From assembly GCA_043811005.1 (NCBI GenBank), contig JBDRNO010000094.1, positions 319 through 64,318 on the forward strand: DNA of 64,000 nt, read 5' to 3'. The notes beneath the pieces were generated by a model. The model worked only from the letters and a program-made list of their open reading frames with translations. It made no database searches and had not been told where the DNA came from. Origin of the DNA: Bacteroidota bacterium (GTDB lineage Bacteria; Bacteroidota; Bacteroidia; NORP154). The position numbers and the translations under genes were made by a program. Positions 3,394 to 53,727 of this stretch are shown piece by piece. Every line of letters starts with the position of its first letter. Position 1 is the first letter of the stretch.

Positions 3394-3547
3394 TATAATT
3401 AGTTTGAATATATTAATTCCTTTTTGGTTTTGCTTGCCCCGTTGCATAACGGGGGCTTGTCCAAGTTATGCAATTAAGCATTTTATTTTACAAAATTACA
3501 AAATAGTTGACTAATTTTGCACTCCGATTTTAAGTTTACATTTTATT

Positions 3548-3620
3548 GGTGCGGTAGCTCAGTCGGTAGAGCACAGGACTGAAAATCCTGGTGTCGGCAG
3601 TTCGATTCTGCCCCGCACCA
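3548..3620 (+). tRNA. tRNA-Phe (anticodon GAA)
   Basis: 73-nt cloverleaf folded by hand. Acceptor stem GGTGCGG/CCGCACC, D arm GCTC-AGTCGGTA-GAGC, anticodon arm CAGGA-CTGAAAA-TCCTG, T arm GGCAG-TTCGATT-CTGCC, discriminator A. No encoded CCA. Confidence 0.95.
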
Positions 3621-3715
3621 CAATATTCTTTAATAAATTAACAATATTTATACCTGGTAATCATTTTCCCCTGTAAAAATCACCGCCACCCTTAAACCGT
3701 GTGTATTAGGTCAGA

Positions 3716-3779: not shown

Positions 3780-5408
3780 ATGAAACAAAATAAAAAAATT
3801 GTTCTGCTGATTATGGACGGATGGGGGTGCGGTGATAAGACCAGATCTGACGCTATAGCAAATGCCAATACCCCCTTTTTTGACAGCTTAATTAAAAAAT
3901 ATCCAAACACCCGGCTCTTTGCTCATGGTGAATATGTGGGCTTGCCACATGGACAAATGGGCAACTCGGAGGTAGGTCATTTAAACATCGGTGGGGGAAG
4001 AATAGTTTACCAGGATCTGGTAAAAATAAACAAAGCTATAGAAGATAAAAGCATTGATTCCAACCCGGTTTTGATAAAGGCATTCAATTATGCAAAAGAA
4101 AAAGGGAAGAATGTTCATTTCCTGGGGCTTGTGTCTGATGGCGGTGTGCATTCCTCGCAGGAGCATCTTCACAAACTTTGCACTATGTGTAAGGATAATG
4201 GATTAAGCAATGTATATATTCATGCCTTTATGGATGGCAGGGATACCGATCCTAAGAGCGGTTTGGGCTTCATCTCCAGATTAGAAGACCACCTCTCCCC
4301 CGGCCCCTCTCCGAACATCCCCCTTGCACCCTTCAAAGAAGGGGGACTGGAGAGGGGAGACCCGGCGCGCAGGCACTCCCTTCTACCAACTGGCAGAGAG
4401 GGCAAGGGAGGGATGATCGCTTCTATAATTGGCAGGTACTATGCTATGGATAGAGATAAAAGATGGGAAAGAATAAAAGTGGCTTACAACATGCTGGTTA
4501 AAGGTGTTGGAGAAAAAACCACAGATGTTTTAATTGCCATTAAAAAATCATACGATACGGGAATTACCGATGAGTTTATAAAACCAATAGTGAGAGTAGA
4601 CGAATATAATAATCCGGTTGGAAGAATTGAGGAAGGCGATGTGGTCATTTGCTTCAACTTTCGCAACGACAGGTGCAGGGAGATAACGCAAGTATTAACC
4701 CAAATGGATTTCCCAGAGAACAAAATGCAAAAAATGAACTTGCATTACAATACCATGACCAATTATGACATTACTTTTAAAGGTATTAACGTTGTTTTTG
4801 AGAAGGAAGATGTTAAGATGACCATAGGGGAAGTACTGTCTAAAGCCGGTAAAAAACAGATAAGAATTGCCGAAACCGAAAAGTATGCTCATGTTACTTT
4901 TTTCTTTTCAGGTGGCAGGGAAGAACCTTTTAAAGGAGAAAAGCGGATACTTATCCCATCACCAAAAGTCGCAACTTATGATCTGAAACCCGAAATGAGC
5001 GCTTATAAAGTAACTGATGCCATCACAAAAGAGCTGAAAGAAGCAGAAACCGATTTTATCTGCCTGAACTTTGCCAACACTGACATGGTTGGGCATACGG
5101 GCTTTTATGAAGCAGTTGTAAAAGCGGTTGAAACAGTTGATACCTGTATAAAAAAGGTAGTGGAAGAAGGCCTTCAGAATGGTTATTCATTTATTATTAT
5201 TGCCGATCACGGCAATGCAGATTATATGATCAATGATGACGGCTCTGAGAATACAGCGCATAGTAACAATCCCGTTCCATGTATCTTGATTGATGAAGAT
5301 TATAAAGATATTAAAGAGGGTATACTGGCTGATGTAGCTCCCACAATCCTGACATTGATGGGAATGGAGGTTCCCGGGGAGATGACTGGGGAGGTTTTGA
5401 TTAGTTAG
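3780..5408 (+). CDS. gpmI: 2,3-bisphosphoglycerate-independent phosphoglycerate mutase carrying an in-frame inserted element
   Basis: MDGWG..., [33 protein letters not shown] and ADHGNA are hallmark iPGM motifs. At 542 aa it is about 30-35 aa longer than usual because of the block at 4292-4408. Confidence 0.93.
4292..4408 (-). repeat. GC-rich nested palindromic element, in frame inside gpmI
   Basis: Inverted repeats cccctctcc/ggagagggg, ccccctt/aaggggg and ctccctt/aagggag. The reverse complement begins GGTCTCCCCTCTCC, like the copies at 18656 and 53586. Confidence 0.75.
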
Positions 5409-9709: not shown

Positions 9710-9925
9710 AACAGAACCAAAAAGAATAAAAAATGTTGCATATTACAAATTTACTTATACGAAAACATCTTGTTGAAAGTTTGCAAGATAGCGAATATTT
9801 CAAAAAGCATCAAAATACTATTCCAAAAACATAGCTATGCAAATAAATTAATGAAATACGAAGTATTCTCGAGGGATTTTTCGAGCGCATGACTGTGCAG
9901 TACGAGTAAATTCCGAGTCAATCAA

Positions 9926-12818: not shown

Positions 12819-13754
12819 ATGCAGGGAATTGTAACAAAATCAACAGGAAGCTGGTGTACAGTCAGGCAAGAGAATGATATTAAGACCAATTGTATAGTTA
12901 AGGGAATTTTGCGGATCAGTGGGATAAAATCAACCAATCCCGTTGCTGTTGGAGACAACGTTGTGTTTGATATTTTAAATGACGGAACAGGTCTTATCTC
13001 TGAAATTCTAGAGAGGAAAAACTACATTATCCGTAAAGCGACCAAGCTATCTAAAAGGTCACATATCATCGCTGCAAATATTGACCGGGCATTCTTAATG
13101 ATTACTTTGGTACAACCTCCTACCACAACATTATTTATTGACCGCTTCCTCGTAACCGCAGAAGCATATCATATTCCGGTTGATATTATTATTAATAAGA
13201 TTGAAATATATACCGGAGATATATTATCTGAAATGAAAAAATTAACAAGCATATACGAACAGATTGGATTTAAATGCCACAAAATTTCGGCTCTAAAAGA
13301 TCAAAATATCGGGGGTTTAAGGGATTTATTCAGAGATAAAATAAATTTATTGTCCGGCAACTCCGGTGTTGGTAAATCCACTTTGATAAACACCCTGGAC
13401 CCCAATCTGAATTTAAAGATCGGGAAAATCTCATCCTATCATAAAAAGGGAACCCATACTACAGCTTTTGCAGAAATGCTGGAATTGCATAGTGGCGGTT
13501 ATATTATTGATACACCTGGCATTAAAAGCTTTGGTGTAATTGATATTGAAAAAGAAGAATTATCACATTATTTTCCCGAGATGAGAAACCTGTTGCACTA
13601 CTGCCAGTACCATAATTGCTGTCACATTAATGAACCAAACTGCGCTGTTATCAAAGCATTGGAAAAAGGGGAAATAGCTAAATCAAGGTACAGGAATTAT
13701 ATTGATATTTATGACAGTGATGACGGTGAGGCGTATAGGCAGAAAGGGTATTAG
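12819..13754 (+). CDS. rsgA: Ribosome small-subunit-dependent GTPase A
   Basis: Circularly permuted GTPase motifs (NKIE, GNSGVGKSTLIN, DTPG) and a C-terminal zinc knuckle (CQYHNCCHINEPNCAV). Confidence 0.9.
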   Translation: MQGIVTKSTGSWCTVRQENDIKTNCIVKGILRISGIKSTNPVAVGDNVVFDILNDGTGLISEILERKNYIIRKATKLSKRSHIIAANIDRAFLMITLVQPPTTTLFIDRFLVTAEAYHIPVDIIINKIEIYTGDILSEMKKLTSIYEQIGFKCHKISALKDQNIGGLRDLFRDKINLLSGNSGVGKSTLINTLDPNLNLKIGKISSYHKKGTHTTAFAEMLELHSGGYIIDTPGIKSFGVIDIEKEELSHYFPEMRNLLHYCQYHNCCHINEPNCAVIKALEKGEIAKSRYRNYIDIYDSDDGEAYRQKGY

Positions 13755-13756
13755 TT

Positions 13757-13789
13757 ATGCGTGACACGGTTCCAAACCGTGGCTCGCAT
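13757..13789. repeat. Palindromic element copy 1 (rsgA-dtd junction)
   Basis: atgcgtgacacggtt-cca-aaccgtggctcgcat, with imperfect 15-bp arms. Confidence 0.65.
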
Positions 13790-13799
13790 AAGAAAAGCA

Positions 13800-14273
13800 A
13801 TGAAAACAGTAATACAACGAGTAAAACATGCTTCGGTTGAAATTTCAGATATGCGTGACACGGTTTTTAACCGTGCCACGCGCGAGATCAACCACGGCAT
13901 TCTGATCTTCCTCGGCATAGAAGATGCCGACACACAGGAAGATATCCAATGGCTTAGCGGAAAAATTTCCCGGCTCAGGATCTTTAACGATTCAAATGGA
14001 GTAATGAACCTCTCTGTCAAGGATGTTGACGGAGAAATATTGGTCATCAGCCAGTTCACCCTACATGCAAGCACCAAAAAAGGCAATCGCCCCTCATATA
14101 TTAAAGCCGCAAAACCAGATATAGCAATACCTCTCTATGAAGCATTCGTCAGGCAATTGGAAAATGATCTGGGCAAACCGGTACAAACCGGTGAGTTTGG
14201 CGCAATGATGGATATTTCATTAATTAATGACGGTCCTGTTACTATCATAATTGATACTAAAAATAAGGAGTAA
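13800..14273 (+). CDS. dtd: D-aminoacyl-tRNA deacylase with an in-frame hairpin insert
   Basis: MKTVIQRV..ASV, SQFTL and NDGPVT match Dtd. I start at the ATG at 13800, because the ORF-track start at 13761 only reads through repeat copy 1. Confidence 0.88.
   Translation: MKTVIQRVKHASVEISDMRDTVFNRATREINHGILIFLGIEDADTQEDIQWLSGKISRLRIFNDSNGVMNLSVKDVDGEILVISQFTLHASTKKGNRPSYIKAAKPDIAIPLYEAFVRQLENDLGKPVQTGEFGAMMDISLINDGPVTIIIDTKNKE
13851..13883. repeat. Palindromic element copy 2, in frame inside dtd
   Basis: atgcgtgacacggtt-ttt-aaccgtgccacgc forms a 13-bp stem with one mismatch. It encodes DMRDTVFNRATR. Confidence 0.7.
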
Positions 14274-18452: not shown

Positions 18453-19796
18453 CTAATGAATTTTTTTGGTTGATAAACAATTTGCAACTTCCTTATAAAC
18501 CTCATCAACAGATATTTCTTGCATACAAACATTGTTAATACATGGGGAGAACCTGTGATTAAAAGCATTTACGCAGGGGCTGCAGGCGAGTTTTTTCCAG
18601 ATAACATGAATGTTAGCCGTTTCATGTGCGGATGTTTTAGTTAGCCTTTGCGGAAGGTCTCCCTCTCCTCTTCGCCTTCGCGTAGCTTCGAGCGAAGCAA
18701 GGTCGGGGAGGGTCGGGGTGGGGCTGGTGGCACGGCTTAATGGACCAAAAAGTTCAGGCGTCTCCGGACCAAACATCACTACTGTTTCAATATCTGTCAA
18801 TGAAGCAAAATGACCCGGACCGCTGTCGTTAGTCACCAAAACATCGGCAAGGGTATAGAGAACCATCACATCCCTTAAAGTTGTTTCACCTGCTACACTG
18901 ATAACATTAGAACTGCCGATTTTGGCGCATATTTCTTCCGCTGCATTTTTTTCAGAAGGCGCACCGGTAATTACCAATATTACGTCCTTATGTTCAGCTA
19001 AAATCTTTTTACCCAATTCTATAAATCTTTCCGCTGGCCATTTTCTCAGAGGCAGCATATCACTTGCATTTGGATTGAGCAACACAATGGGACGATCAAT
19101 TTCCAGTCCCAATTTTTTTGAAAGAAGCGCCTTAACCTTTGCTTTCCCCTCTTCCCCAGGGTGAAATTCAGGTATCTCTATTTTTATGTCTTTAACCGGA
19201 ACTTTTAACAAAGGCACTTCATTCCTGTCCATTGTAAGAGCTTCCACCAATAAGAGATACGCTTTGGAAGTATGTAAATATGGATTGTACTGAATTCGGT
19301 GGGTCATTAAATCTCCGCGATAAGGCAACTCGCTTGTAAACCTGTGTAATCCCACACGATTTGCAGCTCCACTTAAATAAGCTATAATTGCAGATGCACG
19401 GGAAAAGAACTCCATGTCAACGGTTGTATCAATTTTTTCTTTCCGGGCTTTAATAAAGAACATTAAAATATCTGAACAAAAAACAAGGAAATTGCTTTGG
19501 CGGATGGTGAGGATATTTTCAGGTGGAATGATATTTAATATATCCAATATCGGACGGTTATCTTCAAATACACAGAAATAGACATTTTCCCTGCCAACCA
19601 GTTGTATTGCGCGTTTGATAGCCGAATAAGCCAGGACTGTAGCGCACTGTTCGATCAATTTAATAAAAATTATTTTGCGTGGCTTGTCATTCCCGGGAAC
19701 GGAGAAAACCCTGATGATGGACCTGAATAAAGTAAACTTAAAGCATAATGGCTGACCGATCCATTTGTCTATTATTTTAATTGTTTTTGGAGTCAT
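18453..19796 (-). CDS. Glycosyltransferase family 9 (heptosyltransferase-like) with an in-frame GC-rich insert
   Basis: RKWPAERF, VITGAPSEK, LVTNDSGPGHFA and CSPC are GT9 motifs. The extra segment SRATSPTPTLPDLASLEATRRRRGEGDLPQRL is encoded by the repeat at 18656-18724. Confidence 0.8.
   Translation of the reverse strand: MTPKTIKIIDKWIGQPLCFKFTLFRSIIRVFSVPGNDKPRKIIFIKLIEQCATVLAYSAIKRAIQLVGRENVYFCVFEDNRPILDILNIIPPENILTIRQSNFLVFCSDILMFFIKARKEKIDTTVDMEFFSRASAIIAYLSGAANRVGLHRFTSELPYRGDLMTHRIQYNPYLHTSKAYLLLVEALTMDRNEVPLLKVPVKDIKIEIPEFHPGEEGKAKVKALLSKKLGLEIDRPIVLLNPNASDMLPLRKWPAERFIELGKKILAEHKDVILVITGAPSEKNAAEEICAKIGSSNVISVAGETTLRDVMVLYTLADVLVTNDSGPGHFASLTDIETVVMFGPETPELFGPLSRATSPTPTLPDLASLEATRRRRGEGDLPQRLTKTSAHETANIHVIWKKLACSPCVNAFNHRFSPCINNVCMQEISVDEVYKEVANCLSTKKIH
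18656..18724 (+). repeat. GC-rich palindromic element (GGTCTCCCTCTCC...GGGGAGGGTCGGGGTGGGGC family), in frame inside the GT9 gene
   Basis: Shares its head and tail with the 53586-53622 copy. It carries an extra internal gcttcg-ag-cgaagc hairpin. Confidence 0.75.
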
Positions 19797-19865
19797 ATTT
19801 TATTAAATAGAAATTTCTATTCATTCAATTAATTTATTTTAATATTTATCTTTTTGCTTTTAAAG

Positions 19866-19996
19866 ATCAGCTACTGGTTTCTGGTTTGATTGTTAATATT
19901 ATAAGGTAGTAATCTCTACAGCAACCAGCAACAGTTTTTTATTATCAATTATATATCTTACCAAATAAAAGGTAATAAGTAATAATTTGAGTTAAT
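19866..19996 (-). mobile_element. Partial copy of the TAATTAAC...TGGTAAGATATATAATTG MITE family
   Basis: The reverse complement aligns with 35472-35612 (AATAATTAACtCAA...TTTGGTAAGATATATAATTG...AACTGTTGCTGGT...AACCAGTAGCTG). The far-end terminal repeat is missing. The terminus overlaps the stop codon at 19992-19994 of the adjacent gene. Confidence 0.6.
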
Positions 19997-21869
19997 TATT
20001 TATAATCCCTGCCCTCTGAGAATAATATTTTGCTTTTTCTACATCGCCCATACTGTTATAAAGCTTGGCTAAATTATTATTAACATTTCTATTGTTTGGA
20101 TTGTATTGCAAAGCTTTTTCATAGTTTTCGATCGCCTGTTCATGTTTTCCTGTATTATGGTAAACAGCCCCGATATTTGCATAAGGGTCTCCATAATCAG
20201 GGTTTGATTGAACTGCTGCCAGAAAGTGTTTTAATGCTATGTCGTAATTTTTTCTATTGAAATAAATTACACCCATATTATTAAGTGCTTGTTGATAACC
20301 GGGATCTGCCTCAATAGCTTTTTGATAAGCAAACAGAGCTTTGTCTTCCTGTTGATTGGCATAATATGTTACTCCCATATTGTACCATGCAGCAGTAAAT
20401 TCAGGATAGATTTCAACGCTCTTTTTAAAGCCCTCAACAGCTTTTGTGAGCAGTGAATTCCTTTTTACAGCATTTCTCTCTCTTTCTCCATCTACCCTGT
20501 ATGCGGATGCCAAGGCAAAATGATTTCTTGCACTGTTTGGACAGGAATTTATGTCAGCCGAAAACAGCGAGAAGTTGTCCTTCCAGTCTTTATTGCGGTC
20601 AATGGTTTTAATAGAAAATAAAGCAGTTATAACAATTATAATTGTGATCAGTTTTGACCGGTTTTTAGAAAATTTTCCAAGAGGGTCGATCTTTAATATT
20701 TTGGCAAGAAGTATAACAATGACAATACAAAATCCAAGTGATGGGGTGAATAAAAAACGTTCACCCAGTGTTGCACCGATCAATATAAAGAGGTTGGATG
20801 TAACAGACAAAGTGATAAGAAAAAATAGTATACCAAAGGCGATGGCGTCTTTTCTTCTGATACCAATGATGCAATAAATCCCCAATGCAATGTAAATTAT
20901 GAGAGAGGCAATTGCCTTGATATCAGTAAAATTTACAATGGGAAACTGGTTGTAAGAATAATCCCAGCTAAGAGGATGGGGGATAAACAACAGGTAAAGG
21001 TATTCACCGAGGATCACAAAATTAGTAGCATATCTTTCTGCTACATTTCCTGCTCCTCTTAACGAGTTATTGATAATATCCAGATCTTCGCCAAATACCA
21101 GGGTATCAAGAACGTTGTTACGTATTATCAAATAGAGAAAAACAACACCAAGGTAAGGAATGGTTAACCTGAAGATGTTCATAAGGGATCTCTCAGTAAA
21201 GAAGTACAAGATCAGGGGGACAACAGCAATTAATGTTATTCCGTTTTCCTTCGATATCAGGCACAAAAAGTAAGACAATGAGCCATAAAGGAGAAATTTT
21301 GCTTTCTGCTTATTATGGTAATCCATTAAAAAATTTAGCGATAGCACACCGAATAAAAAACTTAGAATTTCAGTGCGGCTGGTAATGTTGGCTACAACTT
21401 CGGTATGGATCGGATGAGAGATGAACAATACAGAGATCAACAGTGGTATAAGAATTGTGTAGTTTTTAAATAATTTTGATAATAATAAAAACAATAACAC
21501 ATTTCCTATAGCATAGAACAGCACATTAAAAAAGTGATTTGCTTTAGGATTATTACCGAAGATCTCTTTTTCTATGGCAAAATTTATAAGAGTTAGTGGG
21601 CGGTAGGATTGGTTATTGCGATTGTTAAAGCCATACAGAAACCCATAAGAAACAATATCTCCGATCCCATCAATTCCCTGCTGTACGAAACGGTTTTTTC
21701 CATACACCACATCGTCATCTAACGCATAGCCATGATTTAATGTATTACCATAGAGAATGAAAGTGAACACAAAAAGTGAAAAAAATATAATACGATGCGT
21801 TTTTGTATTGCTCGTTGATGATAAACTTGATCTCTTGTCCTTCTTTCCCCGCTTTTTATTATAAGCCAC
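19992..21869 (-). CDS. Polytopic membrane protein with C-terminal TPR repeats (PMT/TMTC-like glycosyltransferase class)
   Basis: About 11 predicted hydrophobic segments follow YGNTLNHGYALDDD. The C-terminal region contains 4-5 TPR units (AWYNMGVTYY, ALNNMGVIYF, PYANIGAVYH...). Confidence 0.65.
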   Translation of the reverse strand: MAYNKKRGKKDKRSSLSSTSNTKTHRIIFFSLFVFTFILYGNTLNHGYALDDDVVYGKNRFVQQGIDGIGDIVSYGFLYGFNNRNNQSYRPLTLINFAIEKEIFGNNPKANHFFNVLFYAIGNVLLFLLLSKLFKNYTILIPLLISVLFISHPIHTEVVANITSRTEILSFLFGVLSLNFLMDYHNKQKAKFLLYGSLSYFLCLISKENGITLIAVVPLILYFFTERSLMNIFRLTIPYLGVVFLYLIIRNNVLDTLVFGEDLDIINNSLRGAGNVAERYATNFVILGEYLYLLFIPHPLSWDYSYNQFPIVNFTDIKAIASLIIYIALGIYCIIGIRRKDAIAFGILFFLITLSVTSNLFILIGATLGERFLFTPSLGFCIVIVILLAKILKIDPLGKFSKNRSKLITIIIVITALFSIKTIDRNKDWKDNFSLFSADINSCPNSARNHFALASAYRVDGERERNAVKRNSLLTKAVEGFKKSVEIYPEFTAAWYNMGVTYYANQQEDKALFAYQKAIEADPGYQQALNNMGVIYFNRKNYDIALKHFLAAVQSNPDYGDPYANIGAVYHNTGKHEQAIENYEKALQYNPNNRNVNNNLAKLYNSMGDVEKAKYYSQRAGIINN

Positions 21870-22441: not shown

Positions 22442-24004
<1,563 letters not shown>

Positions 24005-26099: not shown

Positions 26100-26106
26100 C
26101 TAACAA

Positions 26107-26190
26107 CATTGGGGGTGTCCACCAGCTGGCGGACTGAGATCATACCCTTTGAACCTGATGCAGGTAATGCTGCCGTAGGAAAAAGCAATG
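26107..26190 (+). promoter_or_regulatory. TPP (THI-box) riboswitch aptamer
   Basis: The sequence cattgGGGGTGtccaccagctggcggaCTGAGAtcatACCCTTTGAACCTGATgcaGGtAATGCtgcCGTAGGAAaaagcaatg contains the conserved CUGAGA, ACCCUUUGAACCUGAU and AAUGC...CGUAGG(G)AA blocks. P1 pairs cattg/caatg. It lies upstream of thiS-thiC. Confidence 0.9.
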
Positions 26191-26281
26191 ACCCATCTCA
26201 ATTTCCCCCCAAATATTTTTATAGTTTACTCATGAAATAATTTCTTTTCAAAGGTATTACTCACTCTCATATTAGTTTATA

Positions 26282-28994: not shown

Positions 28995-29082
28995 AGTTAC
29001 TGGTTCCTGGTTGCTGGTAGTGATTACTAAACTATATTATTATGGAAAAAAAACAGAAGCCAGAAACCAGTAGCCAGTAGCT
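28995..29082. repeat. Hairpin element between thiC and the thiE-like gene (CTGGTTGCTGG / CCAGAAACCAGTAGC core)
   Basis: agttactggttcctggttgctggtag (28995-29020) versus the reverse complement of cagaagccagaaaccagtagccagtagct (29054-29082). The core is shared with the elements at 19866 and 35580. Confidence 0.55.
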
Positions 29083-29188
29083 GATTATTAAATGCCACAC
29101 CTAACGGGTGGGCACCAGTTAAGGTGGCAAAAAGATAAATGATAAAATAAAATTTATTATAAACATCCAAATTCCGCTATTATAAAAT

Positions 29189-29830
29189 ATGAAAATAATT
29201 GTATTATCCAGCCCCAGGGGATCATCTTCTGAACCCAATGTGATTACACAGCTTTTCAGGAATGGTTTGGAAATATTTCATTTGAGAAAACCAACGTTTT
29301 CACAAAAAGAGATGGAAGAATATTTAGACCTGATACCAAAAAAATATTTGGACAGGATCATGATCCACTCACATCACAAACTTGCTGTCAAGTATAATTT
29401 AAACGGCATTCACCTGACTAGAAAATATAGGAAAAGTAAATACAGGACGCGCATGAGGTTAAAACTTTTAAGATTAAAGAAACCGGATATTAAGATAACC
29501 ACATCCTTTCATTCGCTTAATAGCTTATTTGATGACGAAAGAGACTACGACTATGTGTTTTTAAGCCCTGTTTTCGATAGTATTTCCAAAGGTGACTACA
29601 CGTCTAAATTTAGCGGGCATAATCTCGAAGTGGTGTTAAGCAAAACGAAACATAATGTCATTGCATTGGGTGGCGTGGATGTAGACAAAGTGGATAAGAT
29701 CAAAAAAATGAACTTTTTCGGAATGGCATTACACGGTGCTGTTTGGGGAAATGACAAACCCCTGGAGGTTTTTCTTAATATTAAAGAAGCTTGTCAACAA
29801 TTAGAATCTGTATCTAAAGCAATAAATTGA
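29189..29830 (+). CDS. Thiamine-phosphate synthase-like (ThiE/TenI family) protein, paralog 1
   Basis: TIM-barrel ThiE/TenI pattern (FHLRKP..., GIHL, SFHS, DYVFLSPVF.S, ALGGV) in a thi operon context. Confidence 0.65.
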   Translation: MKIIVLSSPRGSSSEPNVITQLFRNGLEIFHLRKPTFSQKEMEEYLDLIPKKYLDRIMIHSHHKLAVKYNLNGIHLTRKYRKSKYRTRMRLKLLRLKKPDIKITTSFHSLNSLFDDERDYDYVFLSPVFDSISKGDYTSKFSGHNLEVVLSKTKHNVIALGGVDVDKVDKIKKMNFFGMALHGAVWGNDKPLEVFLNIKEACQQLESVSKAIN

Positions 29831-29847
29831 GGATTTATTGCAATACA

Positions 29848-29905
29848 TTAATTAACGTAAGTTGCCACTTATTACTTTTTGTCTGGTAAGATATATAGTT
29901 GTTAT
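29848..29905 (+). repeat. 5' fragment of the TAATTAAC...TGGTAAGATATATA MITE family
   Basis: TTAATTAACGTAAGTTGCCACTTATTACTTTTTGTCTGGTAAGATATATAGTTG aligns with 35472-35524. Confidence 0.6.
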
Positions 29906-35292: not shown

Positions 35293-35471
35293 TGCCGATA
35301 ATTCATAAGCTGGCGTAGCCAAAACCAAAAAGGGTCCTCTTAAATTGGGAAGGGGGATAAATGAAAAACGACCCTCACCCCACGTCCCTTATTTAATTTT
35401 AAAGTATCAGATAAATTTCTTTCCCAAACATAACCAAAATTCAACTGAATGGCCTTGCACCTGTCGAATAA

Positions 35472-35676
35472 TAATTAACGCAAGTTGCTACCTATCACTT
35501 TTCATTTGGTAAGATATATAATTGCAAATAAGAAACTGTTGCTGGTAAAATCCTTATAAAACAAGGGTTGTCGACATAAACCAGCAGCCAGTTACCAGCA
35601 GCCAGTAGCTGTATATAATTTTAATAAGGAGATGACTTCCACATCAGTTTTTATAGGTAGCAACTTAAGTTAATTA
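35472..35676. mobile_element. Complete 205-bp MITE with 24-bp terminal inverted repeats
   Basis: TAATTAACGCAAGTTGCTACCTAT (35472-35495) versus the reverse complement of ATAGGTAGCAACTTAAGTTAATTA (35653-35676), 22/24 match. No ORF. Related copies lie at 19866 and 29848. Confidence 0.7.
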
Positions 35677-47501: not shown

Positions 47502-47649
47502 TTTGACTAACCCCGACCTTCAGGTCGGGGTAAAGAATACAATTAAACACACTGGGGTTTTAACCCCCAATTTCCTTGTTTGTTATGGGCTAAAGCCCAA
47601 TTGGGTATCAGGATTTTAATCCCCGACTTAAAAGTCGGGGTTAGTCAAA
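47502..47649. repeat. 148-bp composite palindromic element containing four GC hairpins
   Basis: The outer perfect 16-bp inverted repeat is tttgactaaccccgac (47502-47517) / gtcggggttagtcaaa (47634-47649). The internal hairpins are ccccgacc-ttca-ggtcgggg, ggggtt-tt-aacccc, gggct-aa-agccc and ccccgac-ttaaaa-gtcgggg. Confidence 0.7.
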
Positions 47650-50758: not shown

Positions 50759-52732
50759 ATGCTAAGATATTTAGTCCTATTGCTACTTTTATTTGGCATG
50801 AACATCTTTGTGCCAATAAGTTATGCCCAAAAACAAGGTAATATCTGGTATTTCGGAGATGGTGCAGGATTGGATTTTAACAGCGGGGTTCCTGTTGCAT
50901 TAACTGATGGACAAACCTACTTTGCAGATTTCCATAATGAAGGTACTGCCGTAATATCAGACAGTTCCGGCTCCCTGTTGTTTTACAGCAACGGGGAAAA
51001 AGTGTGGAACCGGTATCACCAGGTTATGCCAAATGGAAACGGTTTGTTGGGACATCTTTCTTCAACACACGCTGCCTTTATTGTACCGAAACCCGGGAGT
51101 GAGATATTGTTCTATCTTTTTACTTCAGATTCTTATTATCAAAATGATTTAAAGAACGGTTTTAGATATTCGATAATCAATATGTGTTTGGATAATGGGC
51201 AGGGTGACATTGTTCCTGGAACCAAAAATATACTCTTATTGGATACTGTTGCAGAAAAAATTTCAGCTATAAAACATGCTAACAATATTGATTATTGGGT
51301 TATTACTCATAAATATTTTTCTGATGCCTTTTATGCTTTTTTATTGACAAGCAATGGGATTGAAGATACAGTTATTACGTATATTGGGTCTGTACATGAG
51401 GAAAATTGTATTCCTCCTAGTCCTAACTTAACAAGAGCTGCAATAGGACAAATTAAAGCTTCTCCTGATGGAACGAAACTGGCATTAGTCAATACCAATA
51501 CTTGCACGAATATTTCAGAATTGTTTGATTTTGACAAATCAACAGGAATTGTTTCCAACATTATTGATTTAAATACAAATGATGAAGGATGGTATGGTCT
51601 TACTTTTTCACCTGATAACACGAAGCTATATAAAACACACCTTTCTGAGACCAGAATCATTTATCAGTATGATCTTTCCGCAGGAGGAGGACATCCTGAT
51701 TCAATAATAAATTCTGAGAACTTAATTTCATTTATGTCTACAGGTGGTGTAGGTGCTGCGCATAGCCTGCAAATCGGTCCCGATGGAAAAATATATGTTG
51801 CTCGAGGGGATAAGAATTTTATAGCAGTAATCAATAATCCCAATTTTTATGGTGCAGCATGCAATTTTGAGGACAGTGCGGTTTATTTAAACGGCAAAAT
51901 ATGTTCGTATGGCTTGCCCAATTTTATTGACAATTATGATTATTCTAGCACAGGGGTTACTTTACCCCCCATAGCAAACATTACAGGACCTGCATCGATC
52001 TGTTCAGGAGACAGTGTGGAACTGATATCCGGTATCGCTGCCTCTTATGTATGGCTATTTAATGGCTTGCCCATAATACCTGGAACAACACAGACTATTA
52101 TTGCATCATCAGCCGGGGATTACCAGGTAGCAGCAATAAACGATTGCGGAGCGGATACATCGGCTATAAAAACGATAACCGTAGATCCTTTGCCTGATGC
52201 AGATGCCGGTAATGACACTGCTATTATTTCAGGAAGCAGTGTTCAATTGTCCGGCTCTGGGGGCATAGTATATTCATGGAGCCCATCAGCAGGTTTGAGC
52301 GATCCCAATATTTCCAACCCTTTAGCATCCCCAACAGAAACAACTATTTACTACCTTACTGTTACAGATACAAATGAATGTTCAGATACGGATTCGGTAA
52401 TTATCACGGTCATGGATTCCGTAATTATCCCGGTTCCTGATGAATTGGATATATTCATACCTGATATTTTTTCACCCAACGGGGATGGAGAAAATGATGT
52501 TTTATATGTTTATGGTAAAGCGATAGAAAACATATTATTTGTTGTGTATGACAGGTGGGGAGAGAAAGTTTATGAGGCAAAGGAAGTTACAAACGGACAG
52601 GATGGTGAGGTCATCGCGGGATGGAACGGCACTTTCGATAACAAACCACTGGACCCTGCTGTTTTTGTATATTATCTTGAGGTAAATGATGGGGCGATAA
52701 TTAAAAAGGGGAATATTACCCTGATACGCTGA
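50759..52732 (+). CDS. T9SS type B (gliding-motility CTD) surface protein with an N-terminal propeller-like domain
   Basis: Signal peptide, then GNIWYFGDGAGLDFNSG. The C-terminus reads IPDIFSPNGDGENDVLYVYG...YDRWGEKVYE...GWNGTF....LDPAVFVYYLEV...GNITLIR. Confidence 0.85.
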   Translation: MLRYLVLLLLLFGMNIFVPISYAQKQGNIWYFGDGAGLDFNSGVPVALTDGQTYFADFHNEGTAVISDSSGSLLFYSNGEKVWNRYHQVMPNGNGLLGHLSSTHAAFIVPKPGSEILFYLFTSDSYYQNDLKNGFRYSIINMCLDNGQGDIVPGTKNILLLDTVAEKISAIKHANNIDYWVITHKYFSDAFYAFLLTSNGIEDTVITYIGSVHEENCIPPSPNLTRAAIGQIKASPDGTKLALVNTNTCTNISELFDFDKSTGIVSNIIDLNTNDEGWYGLTFSPDNTKLYKTHLSETRIIYQYDLSAGGGHPDSIINSENLISFMSTGGVGAAHSLQIGPDGKIYVARGDKNFIAVINNPNFYGAACNFEDSAVYLNGKICSYGLPNFIDNYDYSSTGVTLPPIANITGPASICSGDSVELISGIAASYVWLFNGLPIIPGTTQTIIASSAGDYQVAAINDCGADTSAIKTITVDPLPDADAGNDTAIISGSSVQLSGSGGIVYSWSPSAGLSDPNISNPLASPTETTIYYLTVTDTNECSDTDSVIITVMDSVIIPVPDELDIFIPDIFSPNGDGENDVLYVYGKAIENILFVVYDRWGEKVYEAKEVTNGQDGEVIAGWNGTFDNKPLDPAVFVYYLEVNDGAIIKKGNITLIR

Positions 52733-52819: not shown

Positions 52820-53137
52820 TTATGCCACTGTAGATTCTTCCTGAATAGATTTTAGCATTTCATGCTTAATAAATCCTCGTAAGCTCAAATCTTCATCAAG
52901 CTTAGACCAATGAATACCTGTTCTGCTAATTTCATAGTTATTTAATAATTCTTCAGAGGTATTATTCAACCGTTTGAACTCTGACAGGTTCCTTTTTATT
53001 ACCTTTTTATTATTAAGCAAAATGATCATCAAATCCATATCCTTATAAAAATATGCTGCTTTAATCCTCAAACCATCCTCCAGAATCATTTTATCGATTT
53101 CATCCAGGTTCCACCTATTATTTTTCAAAGTACTCAT
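52820..53137 (-). CDS. DUF2442 domain protein
   Basis: 105 aa. ...NYEISRTGIHWSKLDEDLSLRGF matches the DUF2442 C-terminal signature (G.GIHWP.LDEDIS..GL). It overlaps the upstream DUF4160 gene by 20 nt. Confidence 0.7.
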   Translation of the reverse strand: MSTLKNNRWNLDEIDKMILEDGLRIKAAYFYKDMDLMIILLNNKKVIKRNLSEFKRLNNTSEELLNNYEISRTGIHWSKLDEDLSLRGFIKHEMLKSIQEESTVA

Positions 53138-53357
53138 TCCATTTAGATATTAAAAATTCATGGTTTTCTTTTATTATTTTCATTATTTGTGCTTCCTCTT
53201 GTGATTTAAAGTCGAAGTAATACTCTGGTTTGGGTTCTGGCAGCAACCAAATTTTTGCATCACCTTTTCCTTTTTTTACGTGAACATGAGGCGGTTCGTT
53301 TCTATCAGATGAAAAAAAGAAAAATCTAAATCCTTTTATAGATAGCACTGTTGGCAT
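53118..53357 (-). CDS. DUF4160 domain protein
   Basis: 79 aa. MPTVLSIKGFRFFFFSSDRNEPPHVHVKKG matches the DUF4160 N-terminal signature (MP.I....G......Y..DH.PPH.H). Confidence 0.7.
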   Translation of the reverse strand: MPTVLSIKGFRFFFFSSDRNEPPHVHVKKGKGDAKIWLLPEPKPEYYFDFKSQEEAQIMKIIKENHEFLISKWNEYFEK

Positions 53358-53585: not shown

Positions 53586-53622
53586 GGTCTCCCTCTCCCT
53601 TCGGGGAGGATCGGGGTGGGGC
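53586..53622 (+). repeat. Short copy of the GGTCTCCCTCTCC...GGGGAGGATCGGGGTGGGGC element
   Basis: GGTCTCCCTCTCCcttcGGGGAGGATCGGGGTGGGGC has the same head and tail as 18656-18724. It sits exactly at the breakpoint of the orphan gene fragment. Confidence 0.7.
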
Positions 53623-53629
53623 GGCTCTT

Positions 53630-53727
53630 CCTTCCACAAACCCCTGGACCCTGCTGTGTTTGTATATTATCTTGAGGTAAATGATGGGGATAGAATGAAA
53701 AAGGGGAATATTACACTGGTACGCTGA
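53630..53727 (+). pseudogene. Orphan 3' fragment duplicating the C-terminal end of the 50759-52732 T9SS gene
   Basis: About 97 nt parallel 52631-52732. A 46-nt core (ctggaccctgctgt.tttgtatattatcttgaggtaaatgatgggg) has one mismatch. It translates to ..FHKPLDPAVFVYYLEVNDGDRMKKGNITLVR*. There is no start, and an upstream in-frame stop lies at 53569-53571. Confidence 0.75.

Follow-up and report, generated by a model that had tools for sequence, protein, structure and literature searches.

How does a conserved enzyme gene come to carry, in frame, a GC-rich segment that its relatives lack? The question arises in a 64,000-nt stretch of a Bacteroidota genome (assembly GCA_043811005.1, contig JBDRNO010000094.1, positions 319 to 64,318; the whole stretch is called the window below). 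Here, the gene of a heptosyltransferase-like glycosyltransferase (GT9) contains a GC-rich element that is read on the − strand as ...SRATSPTPTLPDLASLEATRRRRGEGDLPQRL..., between the segment FGPETPELFGPL and the CSPC motif. We identify this element as a lineage-specific copy of a G/C-rich repeat of the BoxC/PIT/TM type, lying inside the GT9 coding sequence. With a probability of roughly 0.78, we take it to be a tolerated passenger that keeps the frame; more tentatively, we favour arrival by copying rather than by transposition. Coordinates of the features discussed are collected in Table 1.

Table 1. The GT9 gene, the parts of its insert and the related copies in the window.
Feature	Position	Strand	Details
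GT9 (heptosyltransferase-like) glycosyltransferase gene	18453..19796	−	Intact ORF, 447 aa; Pfam PF01075 Glyco_transf_9, E 1e-20
Whole segment missing from orthologues	18615-18737	−	41 codons, residues 354-394; protein and codon-level alignment
Head-side arm of insert	18612-18660	+	Imperfect ~28-nt tandem duplication (self-match scan)
GC-rich core as first reported	18656-18724	+	Head GGTCT plus triplex-type motif; 69 nt
Pyrimidine block Y	18661-18668	+	CCCTCTCC; rule-based motif finder
Loop 1, 36 nt	18669-18704	+	Own hairpin GCTTCG-AG-CGAAGC at 18684-18697
Purine block R	18705-18712	+	GGGGAGGG; complement of Y with one T.G mismatch
Loop 2 and third block RH	18713-18723	+	TCG and GGGTGGGG; rule-based motif finder
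Short copy, same subfamily	53586-53622	+	Loop 1 = CTTC; R = GGGGAGGA; edge of duplicated gene-end fragment
Third copy, in gpmI (3780..5408, +)	4289-4362	−	CCCCTCTCC-36 nt-GGAGAGGGG-CCG-GGGGAGAGG, perfect blocks

The insert in the GT9 gene

An initial annotation, made from the sequence alone, had proposed an in-frame insertion between the GPETP segment and CSPC, in a region that is short in other members of the family. Comparison with homologues bears this out. The database contains 5677 homologues of the GT9 protein, the best 120 of which span 388-448 aa. In the 118 homologues where both motifs could be located, the GPETP-to-CSPC spacing is 23 residues (117 proteins) or 21 (one protein), against 62 in the window protein. 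All 13 homologues that we aligned at the site, 59-76% identical, read FGPL-GD-N.HVIWK, where the window protein has FGPL-SRATSPTPTLPDLASLEATRRRRGEGDLPQRLTKTSAHETA-NIHVIWK.

The same junctions are visible in the DNA. One orthologous locus has CCG TTA GGG GAT AAT at the site (L270, with CCA/CCG variants at the first codon) and another CCT CTT GGT GAT AAT (L271); the latter partly shares its gene neighbourhood with the window, with a TPR protein upstream and PorP/SprF genes downstream. In the window, 41 codons separate TTA from AAC. They occupy the place of two codons, GGN GAT, and lengthen the gene by 117 nt net. The initial annotation was thus right about a GC-rich repeat in frame, and too narrow in taking its 69 nt for the whole insert, which exceeds this core by about 54 nt (41 on the head side and 15 on the tail side). 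The GC content of the insert is 0.61 vs 0.39 in the remainder of the gene; the core itself reaches 68% in a window with a mean of about 38%.

Alignment of GT9 orthologues, suggested as a check in that annotation, finds the segment missing from homologues, and a search of 1.84 billion representative proteins with the insert peptide gave no match; conservation of the segment as protein was seen in neither comparison. Judging from these sequences, the insertion is confined to this lineage; it keeps the frame and falls in a turn that connects the conserved GPETP..PL segment to the strand that follows.

An AlphaFold2 model of the protein, computed from a 57-sequence alignment, has a mean predicted confidence (pLDDT) of 85.6. 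Most blocks beyond the insert exceed 90; for the successive residue blocks across 351-390 the values are 69, 50, 50 and 41. The best match of the model in the PDB is E. coli heptosyltransferase II WaaF (1psw, E 4.9e-18, TM-score 0.83 on the target). A profile alignment places the insertion site in the turn ...GPSSPDFTPPL/SHKARVI... of WaaF, at the slash. In the predicted enzyme, the insert is probably a tolerated and disordered surface loop.

Forty-one extra residues next to the half of a GT-B enzyme that binds the nucleotide sugar could nonetheless do harm, and no product identical to the GT9 ORF is present in the collection of called genes, as might be the case for a recently inactivated pseudogene whose frame is open by coincidence. 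The gene, however, encodes the full 447 aa without frameshift or stop, at 76% identity to its nearest homologue, and it keeps all 70 invariant columns of the 57-sequence alignment. The net length of the insert is a multiple of three. Moreover, just two of the six frames are open across the whole 123-nt insert, and the gene reads one of them. We therefore hold inactivation to be extremely improbable.

A motif of the BoxC/PIT/TM type

The core is spelled GGTCTCCCTCTCC-TCTTCGCCTTCGCGTAGCTTCGAGCGAAGCAAGGTC-GGGGAGGGTCGGGGTGGGGC on the + strand. Its blocks follow a simple architecture rule: 8 nt of pyrimidines, a complementary block with one mismatch at most, and a third block in mirror image of the purine block, again with no more than one mismatch. 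The GT9 copy, CCCTCTCC-36-GGGGAGGG-TCG-GGGTGGGG, has one mismatch in the complement and none in the mirror; its third block RH mirrors R with T opposite A, which counts as no mismatch by the purine-motif rule. In the 64 kb, the rule matches only this copy, a perfect copy in gpmI and a smaller motif nested within the latter, and it matches nothing in 20 shuffles. The general class II architecture, with G opposite G and A or T opposite A in the mirror block, is present.

We recognized the family through a full-text literature search with the tail string. The same strings are given as TM_ECO, the BoxC/PIT element of E. coli, by Holder et al. (2015, NAR 43:10126; PMC4666352), who cite BoxC and Hoyne & Maher as earlier work. 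TM_ECO belongs to the G/C-rich class II intrastrand triplex motifs, and it was counted 3610 times over 262 proteobacterial genomes. The isolated strand folds into a triplex in vitro, which was detected neither in duplex DNA nor in vivo, and the motif loci are tied to locally raised genome variability (PMC4666352). The same kind of element has been described in E. coli as a G-quadruplex/hairpin switch (bioRxiv 10.1101/032615), and related G-rich/C-rich repeats are known from archaea and Deinococcus (PMC8044849).

The resemblance of the window element to this family is detailed. Both combine a C-rich block with its G-rich complement and, after a 3-nt loop, a G-rich mirror image of the latter, and the strings are near-identical: CCCTCTCC, then GGGGAGGG/GGGAGAGGG, TCG/CCG and GGGTGGGG/GGGTGAGGG. 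As in E. coli, the G-rich half is a potential G-quadruplex sequence (bioRxiv 10.1101/032615). Both are dispersed, multi-copy and spread over many phyla. The window holds three copies in 64 kb where none is expected, and conservation is restricted to the motif.

A scan for head, loop and tail, with one genome per species, gave at least 118 loci with loop regions of 4-40 nt. The matches listed come from Alpha- and Gammaproteobacteria, Verrucomicrobiota, Myxococcota, Planctomycetota, Chloroflexota, Bacteroidota, Elusimicrobia and others, and in 80-96% of them the third block, which the scan did not force, is TGAGGG. The exact tail string R-TCG-RH occurs in at least 120 metagenome loci; among the matches listed, the first block is usually CCCTCCCC. 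The exact R-loop-RH string of the GT9 copy is a very common variant of the family. In 115 copies drawn from many phyla, we found the flanks unconserved beyond the motif, which argues that there is no larger RNA or DNA element around the motif. Rfam models gave nothing in the window at gathering score, and around the element only chance-level matches at E <= 10.

Two further copies in the window

Exactly two sites in the window, 18656 and 53586, have the 13-nt head GGTCTCCCTCTCC; they agree at 13/13 positions, as initially described. The 20-nt tail GGGGAGGRTCGGGGTGGGGC is found at the same two sites only, with no match in 100 shuffles, but the identity claimed for it too comes down to 19/20, with one G/A difference. 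The centre of the copy at 53586 measures 4 nt (CTTC) vs 36 nt in the GT9 copy. This confirms that a central part of 30-odd nt, precisely 32 nt, is missing from it and that long and short forms of the element exist. At up to one mismatch, the short copy fails the three-block rule.

The short copy had been called intergenic. More precisely, it lies in what is left, as non-coding DNA, of a duplicated gene 3' end. The final 116 nt (52617-52732) of a gene for a type IX secretion system (T9SS) C-terminal-domain protein are repeated at 53612-53727 with 85% identity, across a two-ORF cassette on the − strand (52820..53137 and 53118..53357). The short copy sits exactly at the start of the homology with the duplicate, where the Gly-Trp-Asn codons GGA TGG AAC have given way to its third block. 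Both this copy and the GT9 copy join the first block of one common variant to the second and third blocks of another, which produces the T.G mismatch. Because this odd combination is common to the two, we infer from sequence that they are related within this genome and were not separately acquired.

The genic part of the earlier claim stands, and so does the presence of a third copy in gpmI. This copy, found by a scan for GC-rich islands together with comparison of the three sequences, is more divergent. The gpmI product has 37 residues (173-209) with no counterpart in iPGM sequences of known crystal structure (PDB 1ejj) or in its closest homologues, which are 77-78% identical. The insert runs about 45 nt past the head. 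Within the loop, at 4316-4345 (−), lies the nested smaller triplex-type motif, CCCCCTTC-TTT-GAAGGGTG-CAA-GGGGGATG, which suggests the insertion of one motif into another. Compared by eye, the 36-nt loops of the GT9 and gpmI copies agree to about 42%, so it may be by chance that they are equally long. A tRNA-Phe gene (3548-3621) is found just upstream of gpmI.

The initial annotation had the GT9 and gpmI copies read in opposite senses by their genes, which did not hold up. The head of the GT9 copy is on the + strand with its gene on the − strand; that of the gpmI copy is on the − strand with its gene on the + strand. Both mRNAs accordingly hold the C-rich complement, and for the GT9 and gpmI copies alike the strand capable of forming a hairpin, triplex or G-quadruplex is the template strand. 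Both motif copies finish, in translation, as ...G(E/R)GD. Both orientations do occur in frame in other genomes.

A profile of 169 short copies, run with nhmmer against the window, found no further copies. The GC-rich island at 23195-23230, considered as another candidate, proved to be ordinary coding sequence.

An unrelated, AT-rich repeat of about 150-180 nt, with copies 80-86% alike, occupies intergenic sites at 19820-20000 (−), 35470-35616 (+), 29040-29095 and 29849-29904. The first copy is located directly upstream of the GT9 gene, and the two halves at 29 kb flank an ORF (29189..29830), as if a cassette had been inserted.

In-frame copies in other genomes

The loop that follows LExHL in gpmI is occupied repeatedly. 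It holds 7-34 extra residues in 21 of the 109 closest measurable homologues, with NPTPALPKGEGE and SSLPFGEGRGG as typical peptides. For six of the 21 the DNA was read (loci L273-L275 and L277-L279), and all six contain triplex-type motifs. Three are palindromic double forms (L273-L275), two are G-rich in the sense strand (L277 and L279, with the window tail GGGGAGGGTCGGGGTGGGG or its CCG variant) and one is C-rich (L278). The nearest neighbours of such proteins, at 85-93% identity, are often without the insert, and proteins that are 94-95% identical hold different forms. In these sequences, the distribution suggests that motifs have repeatedly been gained, lost and turned over at a single site, be it permissive or preferred. 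The net gain in gpmI homologues, 21-30 nt, is less than the length of the motif, which suggests that native bases were replaced.

Coding copies extend beyond this gene. One metagenome contig (L243, GC 0.45) has motif arrays near 8.7, 10.1 and 12.2 kb, made of tandem units of 33 nt, or 11 codons. Translated in the frame of their host genes, they give (SPTPTLPRREG)2-3 close to the C-terminus of three different products; clear Pfam domains are present in two of these. In a low-GC metagenome locus (L237), a BNR-like protein contains an internal copy. We found no report of in-frame BoxC/TM insertions in the literature, although the library that could be searched was limited and this is not proof of novelty. 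The element family itself is ordinary and already described; it is the in-gene location, the forms with a 36-nt loop and the gpmI hot spot that are worth specialist attention.

Could the GT9 segment have been selected for a function, as a regulatory or interaction loop, or as a DNA or RNA structure that tunes expression or gives switchable instability? The frame is kept in an otherwise intact gene, and a short helix is predicted by the model at residues 366-374. The TM loci of E. coli are unusually variable, so that a role in on/off control or variation is conceivable, but neither promoter nor terminator activity has been reported for the family (PMC4666352). The low confidence of the model in this region, the absence of the segment from 118 of 118 homologues and from 1.84 billion representative proteins, and the presence of the same motif in unrelated genes and in non-coding DNA all argue against a selected addition, which we judge very unlikely. 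We infer instead that the insert is a tolerated passenger and no functional domain.

Comparison with other repeat systems

Rickettsia palindromic elements (RPE) reportedly occur in frame in the genes of conserved proteins. They are translated as a tolerated extra surface segment; they are AT-rich, about 100-150 bp long, restricted to Rickettsia and without triplex-type blocks. Their likeness to the GT9 insert is functional only, in that both are in frame and tolerated; by description, no sequence relationship is expected. The small dispersed repeats of cyanobacteria, 20-30 nt long, are said to be found within other repeats and occasionally within genes, without target duplications. The nested gpmI motif and the tandem 33-nt arrays recall them, though the sequences differ.

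REP and REPIN elements, associated with RAYT transposases (Bertels & Rainey 2011, PMC3116915), are likewise short, GC-rich, palindromic and dispersed. They are extragenic, with a conserved 5' GTAG-type tetranucleotide (GT[AG]G), inverted doublets and a cognate RAYT gene. The window element is genic, has the head GGTC and consists of a single unit, and it is therefore not a member of this group (a RAYT gene was not searched for).

How the insert may have arrived

We propose that, owing to its composition, the motif does unusually little harm once it is translated. Its G/C polypurine/polypyrimidine make-up would leave most frames free of stops. All six readings had been suggested to be open, and this holds for the short copy (6/6); in the GT9 core and in the gpmI core it is five of six. 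A copy that falls into a permissive loop with a length divisible by three would then survive selection, which need only purge copies of the wrong length or in the wrong place. Once translated, such an insert would give a loop rich in Pro, Ser, Thr, Arg and Gly, probably disordered, and the DNA would retain its hairpin, triplex or G-quadruplex potential on the template strand.

The borders of the insert bear on the route of arrival. The head-side arm contains GTTAGCC at 18612-18618 and again at 18640-18646, and GTTAGCC(G)TT(TCATG)TGCGGA is present twice. The termini are 6-nt inverted repeats, AGCCGT...ACGGCT, and the sole direct repeat is the internal 28-nt tandem duplication. We found no target-site duplication at the junctions of the GT9 insert. 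The GGCTAAC pair, considered as one, was rejected, being part of the internal tandem duplication on one side of the core. When the 36-nt loops and the arms were compared by BLAST with about 280 fetched loci, the tail alone gave matches.

These termini invite another explanation, a composite of about 123 nt resembling a miniature inverted-repeat transposable element (MITE), made of the arms and the triplex core and moved by a transposase encoded elsewhere, with the motif as its cargo or core. It would account for an insert longer than the core, as also seen in gpmI with its 45 nt or so past the head, for the inverted-repeat ends, and for the AGCC...GGCT pairing outside the core in the predicted fold. 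Yet an inverted identity of 6 nt is weak, and a target-site duplication is missing. The arms differ among the three copies of the window and match nothing in the 280 or so loci, nothing beyond the core is conserved in the 115 copies from many phyla, and the E. coli family has no linked transposase (PMC4666352). We find such a transposable composite improbable.

Copying of the motif from elsewhere in the genome, by recombination or repair-templated synthesis rather than by cut-and-paste transposition, seems a somewhat better account of the route. The missing target duplication, the unrelated flanks and the accompanying 28-nt local duplication speak in its favour. So do the net gains in gpmI homologues, smaller than the motifs, and the overlap of motif end blocks with similar native codons, CAC CTC in gpmI and GGA TGG AAC in the duplicated gene end.

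Several observations weigh against a copied and tolerated BoxC/PIT/TM motif. The strict TM_ECO pattern, CCCTCNCCC N3-6 GGGNGAGGG N3 GGGNGAGGG, is not matched by the GT9 copy: its blocks are 8 nt long and one base out of register with the published regular expression, R is without one A, RH is GGGTGGGG, and loop 1 has 36 nt and a hairpin of its own vs the published 3-6 nt. The 23 copies of E. coli K-12 are all intergenic, without a link to mobile elements (PMC4666352), so that the mobility of the family is an assumption; in the window, two of the three copies are in frame within conserved genes (GT9 and gpmI). The window also differs in its host, a low-GC genome of Bacteroidota type, and in the extra lineage-specific arms, and the 54 or so nt of the insert outside the core match nothing else in about 280 loci. 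Watson-Crick folding, as RNA or DNA, is not clearly beyond that of shuffled sequences (z −0.5 to −2.3), and hairpin stability alone is no evidence for the element. Finally, two or three junctions are the basis for the microhomology with native codons, and those of the GT9 insert do not show it clearly.

The BoxC/TM motifs of Bacteroidota might even be active invaders of coding DNA, entering block-like sites by a repair-templated copy-and-replace process and thereby creating hot spots such as the gpmI loop, nested and tandem copies, and new protein loops comparable to those that RPEs produce in Rickettsia. We regard this broader scenario as doubtful, if worth stating: were it true, it would give a long-known family without function an evolutionary role, together with a testable mechanism of insertion.

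Other repeats and signals of the window

A motif of 27-31 nt, AAGGACATAGCTTTGCAAA.TTATTAA, is found in intergenic DNA at 9825, 12356, 12747, 24034, 24243, 63295 and 63476, and conceivably serves as a promoter or leader signal. Three copies of a small hairpin repeat, ..GCGTGACACGGTT..AACCGTG.., are present at 13753-13787, 13847-13881 and 3426-3460. At 47502-47530 and 47621-47649, inverted repeats are 90% complementary; a GC-rich hairpin, CCCCGAC...GTCGGGG, is present in each arm, with further small hairpins in the space between. At 41.4-42.4 kb and 44.0-45.1 kb, long arrays that repeat every 156 nt (60-73% identity) presumably encode repeated domains of large surface proteins on the − strand. 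A TPP riboswitch was detected at 26101-26198 (66 bits).

Implications

BoxC/PIT/TM motifs have been known since the 1990s and are among the most widely shared short repeats of bacteria. To our knowledge, there is no agreed function or mode of spread for them, and they are treated as intergenic. Copies in frame in conserved enzymes, together with a gpmI loop that is hit recurrently, show that proteins, too, are shaped by these motifs. Orthologous sites with and without an insert, their junctions known exactly, provide raw material for deducing how the motifs are copied. For genome annotation, short GC-rich islands in low-GC genes and unusual loops rich in Pro, Ser, Thr, Gly and Arg within proteins that are conserved elsewhere can be explained in this way, and they are not necessarily errors or new domains.

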